Shown: piece by piece, positions 6,504 to 49,326 of the stretch
How the letters are laid out: each line of letters starts with the position of its first letter
How positions within the stretch are numbered: the stretch's first letter is position 1
Assembly (NCBI GenBank): GCA_963847445.1
Contig: CAWJZV010000024.1
Span: 1 to 64,000, forward strand
Reading direction: 5' to 3'
Length of the DNA stretch: 64,000 nucleotides
From: an uncultured delta proteobacterium
GTDB lineage: Bacteria > Desulfobacterota > Binatia > UBA9968
Program-made: the position numbers and the translations under genes
Notes under the pieces: generated by a model
What the model was told of the DNA's origin: nothing
The model's database searches: none
The model's input: the letters and a program-made list of their open reading frames with translations, nothing else

Positions 6504-6726
6504 ACTGCCTCCCTCAGAAGTTGAAAAAATTTTTCTACTCATGCCACAGTTCCGAGCCATTGCCAACCGAGCGCTGGATAAAGAAAGGGCGGGTTTAAAC
6601 CCGCCCCTACCAATTCGAATTCTATTTTGCGTTCTTTGCGTTCTTTGCGGCCAATTCTCCATCTTCCGCTTCCGCTTGCGTCGCGCTGGGCTCTTTGTGG
6701 TTAAATTCCTAAATCCGACTCTTCTC

Positions 6727-10565: not shown

Positions 10566-10617
10566 TCGGTTAGAGAATTCGCCATAAAGAGCGTAAAAAA
10601 AATCGCAGAGTCCGAGC

Positions 10618-11055
10618 GTAGGGGCGGGTTTGAAACCCGCCCTCCTAGTTCTGGCATGACGAAAATATTTCCCAGGCTGCCGCAGAATTTGTTGCCACAC
10701 AACTACGAGGAAATCCTATCTCACCACGAAGGACACGAAGAGCACGAAGTTCGGACTAATAATTTTCCGAACCCTTCGTGTCCTTCGTGAGCTCCTTCGA
10801 AAATACCTGTGAGGGGATGGATATGCACATCGATAACGACTCTCTGTTCCGTCATACCGGCGCAGGCCGGTATCCATCCCCCCTCCCGCCCCTGGATGCC
10901 GGCCTGCGCCGGCATGACGAGTCTAAGGAATGAACCCTCGCGAGAGGGCTTCCGGTATTTTCATGATCAGTAGACGAGCGTAAGCCCATGAAGCACTTCG
11001 TGGTGAAAACTCTTTGCCATTTGGTTGCGGCTCTGCCGCACTAGGTTCTCTGCGG
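10618..11055. repeat. nested repeat mosaic with a CGTC REP doublet at 10850-10919
   Basis: Filled version of the 5385-5505 element. Confidence 0.85.
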
Positions 11056-11079: not shown

Positions 11080-12389
11080 TCAATACTCCACGCATTTCGA
11101 CATTCCCTGGCCCCAGAGATCGGCGCCGCCGATCATGACATCGCGCGCTTCCAATGGCAGCGCGGCGCGCCCGTCTACCGGCGCTGCGCCGGGGAATGGA
11201 AATATCTTGATCTGCCGGTACGGCCCGATCACTTTGTCCATGGCCGGCAGTTCAATGGGCCGATCCAGACTGCCGGTGCTGACCGCCGCGTCCGCCTCCG
11301 CCACAGTGAAAAGCACCGGACTATCCGTGCCCGCCTTGCCGCCGTTCTCGTAGGTCACCAACGTCGCCTTGATGTTCTGCCGTTCGCAGGCGCGCAGCGT
11401 GAACATGACATCGACAAAGGCGTTGCCGCCGCCGATCCAGGTCACCAGCGCGCCATTAGCTCCCATCGCCTTGGCGAGGCGCGCCGCATTTTGCGCGCCG
11501 ACTTCCTTGCCATGGGAAGTTTCGAAGCGAATGCGCTGCAACACCACACCGGCAAAATTTAATGTCTTGCCATGGGCCGCGTACAACGCCAGCACCAACG
11601 GATGATTCTGCCAATCCCATGTCGTCGGATAGTAGCCGCGCCCCGAGCGCGTCGTATCGACGGTCACTGCGCCATCGAATAGCTCGTTGGGATGAACATA
11701 GGTCGCCAGCGAACTGCGCAGCGACAAGCCGTAATAACCGACGCCCGAGTGAACATGCTGCGGATCGGTGATAACGCCTTGGATCAGCATGACATTGGGC
11801 AGGCGGGAATCGGTGGCGGTTAAATCATAAGTAGTGACATTCGCCGGCGCCAATTCGGCGGTGATTCGCGCCAAGCGCTCAGCGACTTTGAACTCCGCCA
11901 ATTGAATCGCCGTGTGCGCATCGAGCTCCGCCAGACCGTCGACAATCTTGAAGCTGATAACCAGATGACAGAGCGAACTAAAACGCGACACCGCCGCGCC
12001 AGGCCCCGACATGTCGAGGATCGCACTGCGCTGCACCGTCGTACCCGCGCGGATCGTCCCTTCGTACGCCGCCGCCGCGACCACGCGTCATGCCGGATAG
12101 CCGATGAGTCCGCCCCGCGCCGAGGTCTTCGACCGCGCCCAACACCCCGGCAAAAATCTGCCCGCCGCCGGAAACTTTGCATCGCGGCTCGACGATGTCG
12201 CGAATGCCGGTAATGCGCGTCTTCTCCCCCGGCAGCGCCACCGCCAACGCAACATCCTCGATCCGCGCGTCCTCGCGCACCAGCGCGAGCAGCTCGCCCT
12301 TCATCGACCTCGAGCAGCTGGTTCTCGTACGAGAAACGATGGCTCAAGCGAATTTGCTTTACCGGAAATTCCGCGATCTCAAGTTTCAT
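11080..12389 (-). CDS. glycine/sarcosine/betaine reductase component B proprotein-like (GrdE/PrdA family; frameshifts near 12300 and 12085)
   Basis: PGEKTRI..I.D.VEPR.K, G.T..L.G, DMSGPGA, HPNELFDGA and GGGN..VD motifs. Confidence 0.75.
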
Positions 12390-29604: not shown

Positions 29605-30600
29605 TCATCTTATGACCCTATCCGCCCGCACCAGCACGTTGGGCGGGATCGTCAGGCCGATCTGCTTCGCTGCTTTCAGATTGACGATGAACTCGAACTT
29701 GATCGGCTGCTCGACGGGAAGGTCGGCGGGCGTTCGTTCCCTTGAGAATCTTGTCCACGTAAGTCGCCGCGCGACGATACTGGTCGAATTCGTCGGGTCC
29801 GTAGGAGATGAGACACGCCGCTTCGACGAAATCCGCCCCATCGACACATGGACGGCAACCGATTCTTGGCCGCGAGCTCCAGCGACCTGTTTACGTACGA
29901 AAGTTAGTGAAGGCGTTCGGGAAACACGAGCAATGCATCGGCGTCGCCTTCTTGAATGCGGCAAAAGCATCTTGAAAACGATCTGGTGCTCGGACAGACA
30001 CAACTCGCAGAATTAACCCGAACGCCCGAGCGGCCAATCTCTGTTTGTTTGAGCTCGATCTGCATCCCCAGAAGAGCCCGCAAACTCATGCCAAAGTACC
30101 GCCACCCGGCGAACCTTTGGAACGGCTTCTTTGAGAAGCTCGAGCCGCTTGCCACTGAGATCTGGGGAGATGTCGGTGGAGCCCAGTGACATTTCCTCCC
30201 GGGCGAGCAGGCTGGCAGCTAGCCCGCTCCCAACCGGATCACCGGCGCCGCCCACGACAATGGGAATCGTGCTGGTCGCTTGCTTCACGGCCGCCGTGAA
30301 ACCGCCGCTTCCGACGACAATGACGTCAGGTTTTAGCCGCACCATCTCGGCGGCCAGATCGGCGAATCTGTCCCGCTTGCCCTCCGCATACCGGTACTCA
30401 AGCACAACGTTTTTCCCCTCGATGTAGCCCAACTCCTGCAGACCTTGCCGGAAAGCATCGATACGGCTCTTGTGGGTCGAAGCGGAACCGGAAGCCGGCA
30501 CGCCGATCCGGAAAACTTTCACCACTTGCTGTGCCTCGACGGGGCAACTAAGCGACAGAAGCATCTGGCAAAGAGCTAAGACAAAGATTTTTTTACTCAT
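29605..30600 (-). CDS. ABC_sub_bind (PF04392-type) substrate-binding protein, multiple frameshifts
   Basis: AFRQGL.ELGY.EGKN, TIPIV, KRLELLKE and [27 protein letters not shown] motifs. Confidence 0.8.
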
Positions 30601-30798
30601 AGAGTTTCTCTTACCGCATACTTCAGAATCGACAAAGCATTTTGTCGCGCCCATCATTCCCGCGCACAGTTGAATGACCGAGAAACGGAGTGCCGACCTT
30701 TCTCCCCAACCTTATCGAAAAAAGTGCCTACCGCAAACCAAATTCCAATGGGGGTCTGTGTCCAGACGGGTCAGCTTGTGATAATTGTCACCTACCTA

Positions 30799-33379: not shown

Positions 33380-34304
33380 CTAGCGAAAAGTCTCCTTGAT
33401 GTAGCGGTACGCCGCGATGGCCGCAGTGGCTCCGTCGCCGGCGGAGGTGATCGCTTGGCGCGCCGAGTCCTCGCGGATATCGCCGACGGCGTAGAGGCCG
33501 TCGTCGCGCAGTCTTCATCCAGTTGTCCGTTGGGACATGGCCGCTGTCGCTCAGCTTTACGACATCACGCAATAACGCTGTGTTCGGCTGCAAGCCGACG
33601 TAGATGAAAAGACCGGCGAGCTCGACTTGAGAGGTTTCGCCGGATTTAAGGTCGCGGGCGCGCACGCCGGTGACGACTTCGTCGCCGAGAACTTCTTCGA
33701 TGACCGTTTGGTAGCGCGGCGTGATCTTCGCGTTGTCCAACACCCTTTGCAAATAGGTCTGCTGCGCGGCAAACGAATCGCCGTGATGGAAGAGCAATAC
33801 TTTCTCGGCGTAGTTCGTCAGCGTCAACGCTTCCTGCAGCGCCGAGTCGCCGCCACCGACGACGCCGACGGTCTGGCCGTTGTACATCGGGCCGTCGCAG
33901 CTGGCGCAATGGCTGACGCCGCGGCCCATGAGTTTTTCTTCTCCCGGGACGCCGAGATGCTTGAGCGTCGAGCCGGTGGCGACGATCACCGCCTTGGCCT
34001 GATAGCTTTCTTCCTCCGTGACCACCGACCAGAGTTTTTCTGCCGCATCGAGTCGCAAAACTTCGGCGCGCTGAAACTCCGCGCCATGGTCTGACGCCTG
34101 ACGCTGCAAGTTGGGGCAGATTTCATAGCCGGAAACGCCGTCGGGGAAACCGGGAAAGTCTTCGATCTTTTCAATGCTGATCAGATGGCCGCCGGGAATG
34201 TTCGATTCGAAAACCAAAGTCGAGAGTCCTTGGCGCGCCGAAAAAAGTCCGGCGGTGAGGCCGGCGAGGCCGGAGCCGACAATAATTACGTCGTAATCAG
34301 CCAT
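33380..34304 (-). CDS. trxB: thioredoxin reductase (frameshift near 33505)
   Basis: GRGVSHCASCDG and VVGGGDSA; in the shifted frame LYAVGDIR..RQAITSAGDGA. Confidence 0.85.
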
Positions 34305-34430: not shown

Positions 34431-36095
34431 TTATCTCCACTCATCCACCGACACCGTCTTTTGATAGTTGCAATCCATGATGCGCCAGTAGCCGTTGGTT
34501 TCGCCGCCGACGACGACGACGTGGATTTCTTCGGGCTTGAACATATGGATCATTTCGTCCGGGGCGGCTTTCAACTTCGACGCGTAGGGTTCTTCGCCGA
34601 AGGTGGCGCGCGGATAGATGTAATTCTGGATCAGCTGATAATCCCAGTATTCCTTCGCCGCCATGAGCGAATTTTCGTAGGCCCATTCGATCAGTTTCTC
34701 CTTAGTATCGAAACCGCCGCGGTCGATGAACTGGCGCGCGGTGATGGGATCGAGCAGGAAGGTCGGCTGGCTGTGGGCGTCGAGACCGCGCAGCATGCTG
34801 CGCACATGCTCGCGCCAATATTGCTCGCGCACGCCGAGGGTAAACGCCGTCGAGCGGCAGCCGGTGAATACGCTGACCGTGCTGTCGGTGGCTTTGAAGC
34901 CATGCTCGACGTGGAACGGCGTCCACGGACTGCGCTCTTCGTTCTCGGCGAAGGTCACGTTGTTGTAGGCGTAGTTGTTGCCCTGGGAGCCCATGTAGGT
35001 GACGCCGGGCACCGAGCTGCCCTGGCCGTTTTGCGAGAGCAGGCCGTAGGCGCGGCCGATGGTGGCGTTGGCGTGGTTGAACGGACCCATGGCGCCGGTG
35101 CCGCTGTTCATTTTGATTTCGTTTCGAATCGGCCCGTTGACCACGACCATGGCGGCCGCCGAGCTCGACGTGCTGCCGCGGGCGGTGACGCCGGTGGACG
35201 CGAGCGCCAGGATCACCGGAAAATATTCCGGCCGGGCGCCGGCCATCACCGCGTTGACCGCGACTTTTTCCACCGTGTATTCCCAGTATTCTCTGAAATG
35301 GGTCGAGCGCATATGGCCGACCACTTCATCGGGCTTGTGGCTGGTGTGGGCGAGCATTGCCGCCACGCGCTTTTCCGTCGGCAGGACGATGGGCAGCTTG
35401 TCGGTCCAATTTTTGTCGAGAAACAGCTGCTGCAAATTCTCTTCGCTATCGGCATCGACCAGGCGCGGCGTCGCGGCATGGGCGAATTTTTCACTGACAA
35501 CGCCGCTGTCGTCGATCGGTTGGGTCAGCCCTTCGATGACTTCCTGCATCACCGGCCGGCCGCTGAGCGGATCCTTGCCGTCGATGTAGGCGCGCAGTTG
35601 CTCGGCGGTCTTGCCCATCACCGGTTGCGGCACGAAGGCGCGCGGCGCCCGCGGCATGCCATGGACGCGGTTCACCGACTCGACGACTTTTTCAAACACA
35701 TGGGTGTGCAGCGCCACGGTGGGCACGCCGTACTTATTATCGAGGGTCATTGCATGCGCGGCGACCGCCGGCGCACAGGTGCTTCAATGACCGACACCGA
35801 CGATGGCGGCGTCGCCGTCCGCTTTGATTATCTCCCAGGTCTTGGGATCGTCCTTGGTGTAGACGTTGTTCATCTCGACGAACTTGGTTTTTACCGTCGG
35901 CATGTTGTCGGTGAACCAATTCTGCAACTGGCGCAGAAACAGTCCCGAGTCGTCGAAGCGCGGATCGACTAAATAGACGGTCTTGCCGTCCAAGCTGTCG
36001 AGCCGCGGCGCCAGCGCTTTGGGCGTGATCTTGGGCGGATAGCCCACCGGATTTAACACCGAAATGTTTTGGGTTGCGTTAGTGCTGTCAGCCAT
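34431..36095 (-). CDS. predicted 554-aa selenoprotein (UGSC-like UxxC domain fused to an uncharacterised domain)
   Basis: ORFs 35784-36095 and 34431-35750 are in frame, and the only stop between them is a TGA in GVGH-U-STCAPAV. Confidence 0.85.
35755..35775 (-). promoter_or_regulatory. putative bacterial SECIS hairpin
   Basis: UGCG-C-CGGC-GGUC-GCCG-CGCA starts 9 nt after the UGA, with the GGUC loop at +18 to +21. Confidence 0.65.
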
Positions 36096-36180
36096 AGGTA
36101 AATCCTCCTCGCTTATTTACAACCGAAATATCACGGCGGTTGGCCGATTCCTAGCTAAAGATATTGGGCGAAAAACGGAA

Positions 36181-36438: not shown

Positions 36439-37509
36439 TTACTCGGCGAGAAGTTTTTTCACTCTCTCGATCACCTCGGCGCTCTGGTCCATGACTTCGC
36501 GCGCGAGCTTTTGCAACTGCTCTCCCGGCGTGTAGTCGATATCCAGGTTGCTCTTCTTCACCTCGGCAAGCAACTCGGGATCCTTGAGCGCTTGCGCATA
36601 AGCGGCGCGCAGGATCTTCACGAGGTCGGCGCGCGTGCCCGGCGGGGCGATCAGCGCGCGGCCAAAATCATTCGCCGTGAGCACCGTTTCGGCGACACTC
36701 CGGCTCACCTGCGGGGTCTTGTATTCGCTCATGATCTCCCAGATCGTCGGCGTCTCGGGCAGCCTCGGGTCGCGGCTGCGCGCGTCCTGCACCAGATGGC
36801 GGTCGTAACCTTTCGCGTGCCATGTGTTAAACGGTTCACGGCCGAAGTGAGATGAGATGTCATGACCGCGGCAGACGACCTCGCCCTTTTCCACGGCAAG
36901 ATCGATTTCTTTGCCGCCGGCGTAACCGACGATGACATTGAATTTCGCGCCGACGGTTTCCTCTAGAATCTTGGGTAAAATGTAGCCAGAGCTGGCAAAG
37001 CCCGAGGCGCCGCATTTCGGCGGCTCTTTCGCCTTGATGACATCGCCGATGGTTTTGAAAGGAGCGTCGGCGCGAAAATAGAGCATCTGCGTCCATTTTT
37101 CTTGGCTGCCGATCCAGTCGAATTTGCGCACGTCGAACTTGACCTCGGTGCGTCCGACCAGTTGGGTTAGATAGAGGCTGCTATTCGGTATGCCGACGGT
37201 GAGGCCGTCCGGTTTGGCGACGCTGTAAACGTAGTTGGCCGCCACCACCGAGCTGGCGCCGGGCATGTTTTGCACGATCATGTTCGGGCGCCCGGCAATG
37301 AATTTCGGCATGCTCCGGGCGAACATGCGCGCCCATTGATCGGACAAACCGCCGGCGGTGAAACCGACGATAATCCGAATCGTCTTGCCTTGGTAGTAGG
37401 GCTCCGTTTGCGCCTGACCTGGAGCCGTTAGGGCTGCGCAGAGCAGAACCGAGATCAAAGCCAGCGCATATTTCGACGCGCGTGACAGGAATGGAAATTT
37501 TTCAAACAT
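36439..37509 (-). CDS. TctC/Bug-like binding protein
   Basis: YYQGKTI, KPDGLTVG, PPKCGASG and GEVVCR motifs; GAGG RBS before the ATG at 37509. Confidence 0.85.
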   Translation of the reverse strand: MFEKFPFLSRASKYALALISVLLCAALTAPGQAQTEPYYQGKTIRIIVGFTAGGLSDQWARMFARSMPKFIAGRPNMIVQNMPGASSVVAANYVYSVAKPDGLTVGIPNSSLYLTQLVGRTEVKFDVRKFDWIGSQEKWTQMLYFRADAPFKTIGDVIKAKEPPKCGASGFASSGYILPKILEETVGAKFNVIVGYAGGKEIDLAVEKGEVVCRGHDISSHFGREPFNTWHAKGYDRHLVQDARSRDPRLPETPTIWEIMSEYKTPQVSRSVAETVLTANDFGRALIAPPGTRADLVKILRAAYAQALKDPELLAEVKKSNLDIDYTPGEQLQKLAREVMDQSAEVIERVKKLLAE

Positions 37510-38035
37510 TTTATACCTCAGAAGAGAAGGGAGATTACCACAAAGTCTGTCCTGAGCGTATGCGAAGGAACTGAGTCGCGCAAAGGGCGCAACGAAGATT
37601 TCCAAATGGTAGGGGCGGGTTTCAAACCCGCCCTCTGGGAGTTGGGGCATCGACAAATTGCGCGCAAGCCGCGCCAGGGTTCGGATGAGGGCGCGCGCAT
37701 GCTGTGCTTCTGCGTCGTGAAAACAATACTTCACCCTTCGCTGTGAGGAAGGGCATATGCCATACGCCCCTACTAAAGAGATCCGAACTTTGCGCCCTTT
37801 GCGTGCTTCGCGTGAGATATTCCGAAATTTGGTTGCGGCTCTGCCGCGTTAGGCCTCTGTAGTTAAATGCTCTTCCTACCCGAGAGCTCATTTTTGACCG
37901 CGCCGGCGGTCTATATATCTTCAGCGCAATCTGCCATCGATCGTCCTTGACGTTCAAATTCGATCTGCCTTATGGTGCAGATCGCTCGGGTTTCGTCGAC
38001 TGGCTTGGCGTTTTGGAATTCATAACGGAGGCGAT

Positions 38036-44766: not shown

Positions 44767-45806
44767 ATGTTAAGTATCGATGCTGACGCGCATGTGATCG
44801 AGTGCGAGAAGACTTGGGATTATTTAGAAGGCGCCGACAAGCGCTATCGGCCGGTGCCGATCGCCGTCGACATGCCGACCGGCAAGAAGAGCAACTTTTG
44901 GATCATCGGCGGGCGCTTGATCGGCGGGCGCGACAACATCGGCCAGGACACCTCGAAGGAATCCCGCGAGATGGCCAACATCGACTCGCGGTTGAAACAT
45001 ATGGACGACATCGGCACCGGCGTGCAGGTGCTCTATCCGACGTTGTTTCTTGCGGCCGGTGACCGACAATCCGCGCATCGAGCTGGCGCTGTGCAAGTCC
45101 TACAACCGCTGGATGGCGGATATTTGGTCGAAGGATAAGAAGCGTTTGCGCTGGGCGGTGCAGTTGCCGCTGTTGACCATGGACGCGGCGCTTGGATGAA
45201 TTGCGCTGGTCCAAGGGCAACGGCGCCTGCGCGGTGTTCATGCGCGGCATCGAGACCAATCACGTGCTGCACGATCCGTACTTTTTCCCGCTCTACGAGG
45301 AGGCGAGCCGGCTCAATCTGCCCATCGGCATTCACTCCGGCATCGGCAACTTCACCGTCAACGACATGCTCGGCGCCGAGCCGTTTCGCGTCGCCAAGCT
45401 GATCGTCATCGGCGGCTTTCACTCGATGATCTTGAACGGCATCCTGGAAAAGTTTCCCAAGCTGCGCGTCGGCGCTATCGAAGTGGCGGCGCAGTGGGTG
45501 CCGTATATCGTGCACGATTTGAATCTGCGTTTCCCCAAGCTCGAAGGCAAAGAAGCGCGGCCCGACGTCTTGACCGGCAGCAGCCAGTTGTTCGTCGCCT
45601 GCCAGACCGACGACGACCTGCCCTACGTGCTCAAGTACGCCGGCGAAAATTGCTTGATGATCGGCTCGGACTACGGCCACGCCGATAATGCCAGCGAGTT
45701 GCTCGCCTTGGCGAAGTTGAAAGAAACCAGTGACATCGATCCCAAAGTGATCGACAAAATTCTGACTTACAATCCGGCGAAGTTTTACGGGCTGGATGTG
45801 GATTGA
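44767..45806 (+). CDS. amidohydrolase_2 family protein (frameshifts near 45050 and 45192)
   Basis: Tandem paralog of the upstream gene; IDADAH and GSDYGH motifs. Confidence 0.85.
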
Positions 45807-46032
45807 GAAACGTGATCGTGTTCGTGATCGTGGCTCGTGGTCGATTGGACGTGCTCGAAAGCGCTGCGTTGTCCCTTTGAGTTTCCCCTCGCCCGTTGCG
45901 GGAGAGGAGGGTGAGGGTTCTTGTAGGGCGATCGGCGGTCGCCCTTGCCCTCATCCCTGCCTTCTCCCAGAGGGAGAAGGGGTAAGACATCTCGAGTGAG
46001 GATTGACCCTAGCCGAAAGACAAACTAAATCG

Positions 46033-47196
46033 ATGAGTGAAATCATGGCTGATACTTACGATTTACTTTTGACCGGCGGCACGGTGGTCAATCCGGCGAC
46101 CAAGACCAATGAGAAACTCGACGTCGGCGTCAAAGGCGATCGGGTCACGGCGATTCAAGCGAGCATTCCGCGCACCGAGTGTCAAGCGCGTCATCGATGT
46201 CACCGGCTGCTACGTGACGCCGGGGTTGATCGACTTCCATGTGCATAGTTACTGGGGAGTGAATCCCTACGGCTGCGATCTCGACGCGCTGTGTCTTGCC
46301 ACCGGTGTGACCACGCGCGCTCGATGCCGGCTCGGCCGGGCCGGTGAACCTGCTCGGCTTTCGCAAACTCGTCTACGAGCGATCGAAGACGCGCATGATC
46401 GGTTTCGTCGCGTTGGCGCAGCATGGCGTGCTGCAACGAACCGGGCGAGCTGCTTAATTTGGGCTTCGCCGACTTGCGACGGCTCGGCGCAAGCGGTGAT
46501 CGACAACCGCGACATCGGCGTCGGCATCAAAGTCCGGTTGCACAAGAAATCCATCGGCGATAACAGCCGCGAAGCCTTGCGCCTGGCGATCAAGGCCGGC
46601 GAAGCGTCGGGCACGCCGATCATGGTCCATGTCGGCAGCACGGCGATCGGCATGGACGAGATCGCCGACACGTTGCGGCCGGGCGACATCATCACGCACT
46701 GCTACACGCCGCAGAAGCCGTCGATCATCGACGACAAGGGTAAGCTGCTGCCGCTCGTGCGCAAGGCCAAAGAGCGCGGCGTGATCTTCGATGTCGGCCA
46801 TGCCGGCGGCCATTTCGATTTCGCTCTGGTCGAGCGCGCCATGGGCGAGGGGATCATGCCCGATATCATCAGCTCGGACCTGCACGGGCGCTTGAGCCAG
46901 CCGGGCTTTGGCGTCGTCGGCGATTTACCGACGGTGCTGACTAAGTTCATTGCCGCTAGGCTTGAGCTTCGATGAGATTATCGCCAAGCTGCACGGTCGA
47001 CGCCGCGCAAGCGGTTGGCTGGCAAGACCGTATCGGCAGTCTCGAAGTCGGCCGCGAAGCGGATATCGCCGTGCTGCAAATCGTCGACGATCCGGTGACG
47101 CTGCACGACTCCGTCGGCGGCGAGAAGTTGCACAAGCAACGCATCGCCGCCAAGTGGACCGTCCGCGCCGGCGAAGTGTTTCAAGGCCGCGGGTGA
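46033..47196 (+). CDS. dihydroorotase-like metal-dependent amidohydrolase/deacetylase (frameshifts)
   Basis: PGLIDFHVH, GIKVR, MVH, THCY, FDVGH and SSDLH motifs. Confidence 0.8.
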
Positions 47197-48614: not shown

Positions 48615-49326
48615 ATGAGTTCATCGTGGGAAAACGTCAAAGTCGATGGCTCGAACATGCGCGCTTACGTCAGCGCGCCGGACGATTCGAGCAAAGCTCC
48701 GGCGATCGTCATCGTCCAGGGCCAGACCGGCGTCGACGATTTTGTTCAATTTACCCGCATGGTCGCGAGCGAAGGATTTGTCGGCGCGGCGCCGGATCTC
48801 TATCACCGCGATCCGGCGGACTGCAAAGACGACGCGCCGACGCGGCGCATGCGCTTGACCGATCAGACCGTGATCGCGGACGTCAATGCGACGGTCGGAC
48901 TTTCTCAAGTCGCATCCCGTCGGTCGACCCGGCGCGGATCGGCATCGTCGGCTTCTGCATGGGCGGGCGGGCGGTCTATTTGATGTCGGCGGTGAATCCG
49001 GACCTCAAAGCCGGCGTGATGTATTACGGCAGCGATCCGTTTCATGCCTGGGGCGATGGACCGTCGCCGTTCGAGCGCACGGCAAAGATATCCACTGCCC
49101 GATCATGGGCCACTTCGGCGAAGACGATAAGAATCCATCACCGGCGGATATGCGCAAGCTCGACGCCGAGATGACGCGGCTCGGCAAAGTCCACGAATTT
49201 CATTCCTATGCCAACGCCGCCCATGCCTTCGCCAATTTCGGCTCGCCGGGATACCGCGAACACGCGGCAACGGCTTCGTGGCCGCGGACCTTCGGGTTTT
49301 TTTCCAAGCATCTCAAGGGACGCTAA
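48615..49326 (+). CDS. dienelactone hydrolase family protein (frameshifts)
   Basis: APDLYHR, IGIVGFCMGG, FGEDD and Y.NA.HAF motifs. Confidence 0.85.

Follow-up and report, generated by a model that had tools for sequence, protein, structure and literature searches.

A probable UGSC-family selenoprotein with a large C-terminal domain, encoded beside a thioredoxin-reductase-like gene in an uncultured member of the Binatia

The window analyzed here is a 64,000-nucleotide stretch from an uncultured delta proteobacterium (Desulfobacterota; Binatia; UBA9968), namely positions 1 to 64,000 of contig CAWJZV010000024.1 in assembly GCA_963847445.1. Its minus strand carries, at 34431..36095, a gene of 554 codons plus TAA in which codon 104 is a UGA predicted to encode selenocysteine (Sec, U). 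Read directly on that strand, the gene opens with an ATG at 36095-36093, 7 nt after the Shine-Dalgarno-like sequence GAGGAGGA (36103..36110, minus strand), and closes with a TAA at 34433-34431. The in-frame TGA (35784..35786, minus strand) lies in the codons GGT CAT TGA AGC ACC TGT, which give the motif G-H-U-S-T-C with U at residue 104. Under translation table 11, the region falls into two open reading frames (ORFs) in the identical frame, 35784..36095 (103 aa) and 34431..35750 (439 aa); reading through the TGA joins them into 554 residues, with U104 as the single recoded codon. The product contains a UGSC domain (residues 13-169; 35589..36059, minus strand) and a C-terminal domain that matches no named family (residues 203-554; 34434..35489, minus strand), and a hairpin resembling a selenocysteine insertion sequence (SECIS) is found within the coding sequence at 35755..35775 (minus strand). 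Taken together, these sequence features make it very probable that the region encodes a single 554-residue selenoprotein, with the UGA at codon 104 forming part of the U-x-x-C motif of its UGSC domain. An earlier, sequence-only reading of this DNA had described the TGA, the motif, the joined 103-aa and 439-aa ORFs and the hairpin, and all of these were confirmed on the minus-strand sequence. Its proposal of one fused 554-aa selenoprotein gene is also supported, namely by end-to-end orthologues, a conserved TGA and cysteine-containing homologues.

Comparison with related genomes shows that the TGA is highly conserved. Orthologues were present in 20 of 40 relatives (72-97% identity; one of the 20 is from the unpublished genome G005), and each contains exactly one TGA. 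Residues 1-554 align over their full length with these proteins without a frame break, with 97% identity to the copy in genome G004. The TGA is retained in orthologues as distant as 43% identity, and the 12 codons that separate it from the internal ATG at 35750 are conserved in frame. In a public set of 156 loci, 139 hold the motif, in 141 copies. At the DNA level, the codon at the motif position is TGA in 75 of these copies, TGC in 63 and TGT in 3; homologues with cysteine aligned to the UGA, which the sequence-only reading suggested seeking, therefore do exist. A further 13 full-length database proteins show C at the U104 column, though this is not evidence alone; they were left uncounted because U is printed as C in that output, and the DNA counts were used instead.

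The Sec forms come from Acidobacteriota, Binatota, Rokuibacteriota, Methylomirabilota, Chloroflexota, Thermodesulfobacteriota and others, and the 66 copies with TGC or TGT are nearly all from Alpha- and Betaproteobacteria. Two Vicinamibacterales loci, L090 (positions 3286 and 4962) and L093 (3304 and 4949), carry the fused gene twice in tandem, both copies having their TGA in the motif G-L-U-S-T-C and a perfect 8-bp hairpin. A bacterial-type Sec form (69% identity) was also observed at locus L083, on a contig of a metagenome-assembled genome titled as an ammonia-oxidizing archaeon; this archaeal assignment is probably a binning error.

Public sequencing data cover the stretch in part, with the best run containing at most 0.48 of its sequence words. 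Contigs from these runs show no difference at 35784-35786 among the differences listed. One 586-nt contig from run X2 spans the TGA and has two differing letters somewhere along its length. The metatranscriptome run X16 yielded small pieces only, at 90-95% likeness, which fall short of indicating transcription of this gene. A scan of the region for promoters and terminators returned nothing useful.

The hairpin starts 9 nt past the UGA and has the sequence UGCG-C-CGGC / GGUC / GCCG-CGCA, i.e., a stem of 4 bp, a bulged C and a further 4 bp, closed by a GGUC loop at 35766-35763. The first loop base lies 18 nt past the A of the UGA, matching the spacing given in the sequence-only reading. There are marked differences between Sec and Cys forms in this segment. 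The GGUC (GGTC) loop is present in all 38 distinct Sec-form 27-mers compared with 20 of 63 Cys forms, and an unbroken stem of at least 4 bp in 27 of 38 compared with 1 of 63. Mean minimum free energies (MFE) of the hairpin are -12.2 and -6.0 kcal/mol, respectively. Among the Cys forms, there is synonymous variation in the Ala-Val codons beneath the loop, and the residues encoded by the 3' arm are different. Compensating changes were observed at two pairs: columns 25-32 are GC in 32 sequences, AU in 5, GU in 1 and unpaired in 12, and columns 21-36 are GC in 14, CG in 5, AU in 2 and GU in 1. We infer that the hairpin is a putative SECIS element because of its position, its invariant loop and its absence from the Cys forms, which is a comparative argument rather than a statistical proof of structure. 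The proposal of a SECIS-like hairpin thus held up, with a loop invariant in Sec forms and variable in Cys forms. The SECIS of Escherichia coli fdhF is a stem-loop directly 3' of the UGA, within the coding sequence, with G-U in its apical loop at a short, constant spacing from the UGA. The present element is similar in being a stem-loop directly 3' of the UGA in the coding sequence with its GGUC loop at +18; it differs from fdhF-type elements in its short stem (4 + 4 bp with one bulged C), in a lower-stem register that depends on the clade and in the lack of an Rfam match. By the established bacterial mechanism, such a hairpin would bind SelB-GTP-Sec-tRNASec at the ribosome, so that the UGA would be decoded as selenocysteine and not as a stop.

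Most of the machinery for this process is represented in the genome. Genes for selA (569.8 bits), selB (in four ordered pieces) and selD (360.3 bits) lie together in one operon on contig C14 of the source assembly, which is 91.8% complete, and selD carries its own in-frame TGA. The same genome has two further UGSC genes with an in-frame TGA and strong downstream hairpins, in which the motif is the canonical U-G-S-C. Among close relatives, intact selB was found in five of five and tRNA-Sec in five of five, at 73-77 bits.

Several observations weigh against the selenoprotein interpretation. On a FastTree tree of 114 rows, the Sec/Cys state changes just three times, so the contrast between Sec and Cys forms amounts to about three independent comparisons and a pairs test cannot reach significance. 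The folding energy of the hairpin is unexceptional (MFE of -24.5 kcal/mol for 71 nt, z of -1.12, with 25 of 200 shuffles folding equally well), and its significance therefore derives solely from the cross-sequence comparison. There is only modest covariation: of the four upper pairs, three are invariant and the fourth is U-U or U-C in 12 of 50 sequences, and the register of the lower stem shifts from clade to clade. By a looser criterion, a GGTC loop on a short stem also appears in 10 of 49 Cys rows and is missing from 10 of 65 Sec rows. The hairpin bases also encode the conserved residues C-A-P-A-V-A-A-H, so some of their conservation reflects the protein, and an Rfam search of 35600-35900 (E ≤ 10) returned no SECIS family and no match at all. 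The decoding machinery also has defects as assembled. The selA, selB and selD genes are all frameshifted, with six +1 insertions in the 4.5-kb operon relative to four relatives (selA 1, selB 4, selD 1); the extra bases are near C14 positions 192736, 193253, 193417, 193809, 194117 and 195734. A complete tRNA-Sec gene (selC) was not found in the source assembly: its 5' 66 nt are absent, and its 3' 28 nt are an exact copy of the relatives' 3' end, at C12:77575-77602, joined to AT-rich DNA. This piece resembles what an element integrated into selC would leave at its attachment site. Hence, of the four sel genes that the sequence-only reading had proposed to confirm, selA, selB and selD were located, broken by +1 insertions, and selC was recovered as its 3' 28 nt only.

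Candidates for the missing tRNA were rejected. The best hits to the Rfam tRNA-Sec model (45 bits against a gathering threshold of 47; 150 of 964 candidates scored) are tRNA-Ser, and the ARAGORN "tRNA-SeC" at C2:139122-139203 is a false call with a mismatched acceptor stem and no Rfam match. As a separate observation, a stretch of approximately 80 nt beside the tRNA-Sec gene of genome G021 (L045:1704-1852) matches most contigs of the source assembly at many places with 75-88% identity. This dispersed family of short repeats occurs in the window at 6576-6654 and 10586-10644 and at dozens of other places in the genome.

These defects raise the question of whether the Sec trait is decaying in the source organism, in which case the lesions would be real, the TGA would be a stop and the relic would yield a 103-aa fragment or nothing. 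The extra bases in the three sel genes and the reduction of tRNA-Sec to a 28-nt remnant beside AT-rich DNA are what such decay would leave. Genome G008 also retains just two short adjoining pieces of the fused gene (G008:C19:80345-80791; residues 9-88 and 484-554, with a TAG within the latter), which look like the product of an internal deletion. However, all six lesions are of the +1 type, and their rate equals the genome-wide excess of this assembly: isolated extra bases number 90 in the source genome compared with 19 in G004 across approximately 65 kb of alignment, or about 1.4 per kb. An insertion of the same type, in the reductase-like gene downstream of the selenoprotein gene, is absent from independent short-read contigs. 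Given the equal rates and this absence, the frameshifts in the sel genes are most likely assembly errors. Furthermore, four genes with an in-frame TGA, i.e., selD, the two other UGSC genes and the fused gene, are otherwise intact, the last without a frame break relative to its 97%-identical G004 copy. We therefore regard decay of the trait as improbable.

A second possibility is that the TGA is a true stop, leaving either two separate genes or a nonsense pseudogene, with the 439-aa ORF translated from the ATG at 35750. Gene calls favor this on their face, as the table-11 ORFs and public annotations agree and 34 of the 120 best database matches are proteins of 436-441 aa that start just past the TGA. 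A stop at this position, however, would cut the UGSC domain within its most conserved motif, and in the Cys forms the frame runs on there without interruption. The codons between TGA and ATG are conserved in frame, and the TGA itself persists in distant orthologues. The ATG at 35750 also lacks an upstream Shine-Dalgarno-like sequence. This reading is accordingly very improbable, and the short database proteins instead reflect the splitting by ordinary gene callers that the sequence-only reading had foreseen. Least credible of all is that the UGA is decoded in another manner, through a reassigned code or by near-cognate read-through that inserts Trp, Cys or Gly. Nothing specific speaks for it beyond the failure to find a full tRNA-Sec in the assembly. 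Against it, TGA ends 996 of the 2383 open frames of at least 350 codons in the source genome and is thus a normal stop there, the sel operon is present, the relatives have tRNA-Sec, the position is Cys in homologues and the hairpin is specific to Sec forms. Insertion of selenocysteine at codon 104 remains the explanation that we favor.

Such extra bases, probable assembly errors, occur in other parts of the window too. Relative to G004, they were located at 12085, 12296, 16326, 17404, 17533, 17577, 17600, 17623 and 18117, at nine sites within 45051-46989, and at 48900, 48920, 49361, 50603, 50627, 56902, 57231 and 57357. Because of these single extra bases, many genes in the assembly will look frameshifted, and "pseudogene" or "split gene" calls are suspect.

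The N-terminal domain matches Pfam PF24696 at 82.1 bits (cut-off 25; 78 bits in the genome scan), which bears out the suggestion that it resembles UGSC-family proteins. It is modeled with a flavodoxin-like alpha/beta fold. The score against the NCBIfam equivalog NF041046 is 54.2 bits, under the cut-off of 125. Judged by sequence, the present protein is a divergent branch of the UGSC family. In common with the family, it exceeds the PF24696 threshold and shows a UxxC motif with Sec/Cys alternation; unlike canonical members, it has the motif U-S-T-C, with the UxxC spacing retained but not the literal U-G-S-C, falls below the NF041046 cut-off and carries a C-terminal domain of 350 aa. An AlphaFold2 (AF2) model of the whole protein has a mean predicted local distance difference test (pLDDT) score of 90.4 and a predicted template modeling (pTM) score of 0.89, and places the Sec between a strand (96-102) and a helix (107-121). 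Searches of the whole model with VIA-align gave Z scores of approximately 10 to many unrelated flavodoxin- and CheY-like chains over residues 33-198, a comparison that tested the N-terminal domain alone. With Foldseek against the Protein Data Bank (PDB), the whole model gave generic alpha/beta matches only, with template modeling (TM) scores of at most 0.2.

Selenoproteins of the UGSC family have been in print since 2007-2008. In the portions of these papers available to us, they are described as a family with no assigned function (Zhang and Gladyshev, PMC1976440) and then as a set of 255 Sec sequences with UxxC motifs and Sec/Cys alternation that are abundant in non-marine samples, where the family is among the commonest of the bacterial selenoproteins in metagenomes (Zhang and Gladyshev, PMC2398784). 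The available text of the latter also names a "UGSC/Unknown_1" fusion, in which Unknown_1 may or may not correspond to the present C-terminal domain. The family also figures in reviews of 2022 and 2026; in its accessible part, the more recent one describes the functions of such proteins as largely uncharacterized. Some relatives of the present protein are already named "UGSC family (seleno)protein" by NCBI. The epithet "hidden" in the sequence-only reading is therefore not really apt, given that the family has been published, has an NCBIfam entry and includes relatives that have been named; because UGSC selenoproteins are already published, the gene is a further member of a known family and ordinary for the field. 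What appears to be new here is the 350-aa C-terminal domain, with neither a Pfam match nor a convincing fold match, and the adjoining thioredoxin-reductase-like gene.

For the C-terminal domain, no Pfam match at E ≤ 1 was found in 22 of 23 members, the remaining one giving a chance match at E 0.22, and PDB sequences gave no match at E ≤ 10. Modeled alone with AF2 (pLDDT 83), its best fold match has a Z score of 5.3, with a root-mean-square deviation (rmsd) of 3.3 over 82 residues or 5.9 over 173, and the best Foldseek hit is a class I fumarate hydratase (E 2.4e-3, TM 0.23). On the basis of the model, the domain appears to be without a convincing solved relative, which is no proof that its fold is new. 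The domain is widespread: its profile retrieves 5918 representative clusters at E ≤ 1e-3, and 1395 when the limit is set at E ≤ 1e-30. It also occurs in a split form: in the source genome, a UGSC gene with a TGA (C36:15653-16165) adjoins a separate gene for the C-terminal domain (C36:14446-15349), and such adjacent pairs were observed in at least 12 relatives. The occurrence of the two domains as adjacent separate genes supports the idea that both work together.

A gene for a thioredoxin-reductase-like (TrxR-like) flavoprotein lies 127 nt downstream of the selenoprotein gene, at 33380..34304 on the minus strand (end approximate). It matches TIGR01292 at 281.9 bits over profile positions 1-263 of 300 and contains a CASC motif at residues 133-136. 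The window copy is cut by a frameshift, such that its true C-terminus lies in another frame. A single extra base near 33504-33506 is responsible; runs X2 and X5, from two other studies, gave independent contigs that are one base shorter at 33504 or 33506. Scores of intact orthologues range over 277-324 bits, and none of six reaches the TIGR01292 equivalog cut-off of 343.45, so by sequence the neighbor is classed as TrxR-like and not as a TIGR01292 equivalog. In a targeted tblastn search, a homologue was found within 3 kb in 58 of the 156 loci, many of which end short, and was in most cases the immediate neighbor on the same strand, on one side or the other. These loci are Binatia-like or belong to Vicinamibacteria, Chloroflexota and Alpha- and Betaproteobacteria. 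The source genome has a second, different TrxR-like paralogue on contig C44.

Upstream, a TctC-family solute-binding protein is encoded at 36439..37734 on the minus strand (PF03401, 64.7 bits), with a homologue in 11 of the first 78 loci, mostly in the close clade. Other neighbors vary and include MFS, NMT1-like, TctC, amidohydrolase, amidase and MarR proteins (Pfam matches for 41 ORFs from 10 loci). More broadly, the segment 25958-44539 of the window is dense in solute-binding proteins, namely TctC (28746, 36439 and 38178), NMT1-like (39417 and 40899), Peripla_BP_6 (25958) and ABC_sub_bind (29605-30657) proteins, and also holds an amidohydrolase and a MetE-like gene.

The fusion protein and the adjoining flavoprotein may form a two-component reductase for an unknown small molecule, operating through a U104/C107 relay, a proposal that we judge evenly poised. 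In such a system, the redox-active selenol/thiol pair would consist of U104 and C107, where a helix of the flavodoxin-like domain begins. The TrxR-like flavoprotein, with its CxxC at 133-136, would re-reduce this pair using NAD(P)H, and the pair would hand reducing equivalents on to a substrate that the fused C-terminal domain binds. The arrangement recalls TrxR/thioredoxin and AhpF/AhpC in that a low-molecular-weight TrxR homologue with a CxxC motif, full length in intact orthologues, is found beside a U/CxxC protein; it differs in that the neighbor is below the TIGR01292 cut-off and the acceptor domain is modeled as flavodoxin-like and not as a clear thioredoxin fold. Among selenoproteins, glycine reductase GrdB and D-proline reductase PrdB depend on a thioredoxin system encoded nearby. 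The present protein is like these in having a UxxC motif, PrdB being listed as UxxC in the part of PMC2398784 available to us. General family and fold searches gave no match to GrdB or PrdB, and no aimed homology comparison was made. Against the putative relay, the reductase neighbor was found at some loci and not all, and the C-terminal domain contains no invariant Cys. More tentatively still, and with less confidence than in the relay itself, the C-terminal domain could perform the catalysis in a widespread and as yet undescribed reductase system that is fed by a fused or adjacent UGSC domain and a TrxR-like flavoprotein. A narrow search of the UGSC selenoprotein literature, in the portions available, found neither the reductase pairing nor the size of the C-terminal domain family.

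These findings have consequences for how the family is represented and studied. Public protein sets store this gene and many of its relatives as truncations of 436-441 aa that lack the active-site half of the redox domain. The pairing with a TrxR-like gene, together with the association, fused or split, with a large domain that has no name, provides a concrete hypothesis, and cultured carriers of Cys forms such as Bradyrhizobium, Sphingomonas and Ramlibacter make the reductase proposal testable. If true, such a reductase system would set the UGSC selenoproteins, long an orphan family, in a biochemical context for the first time.

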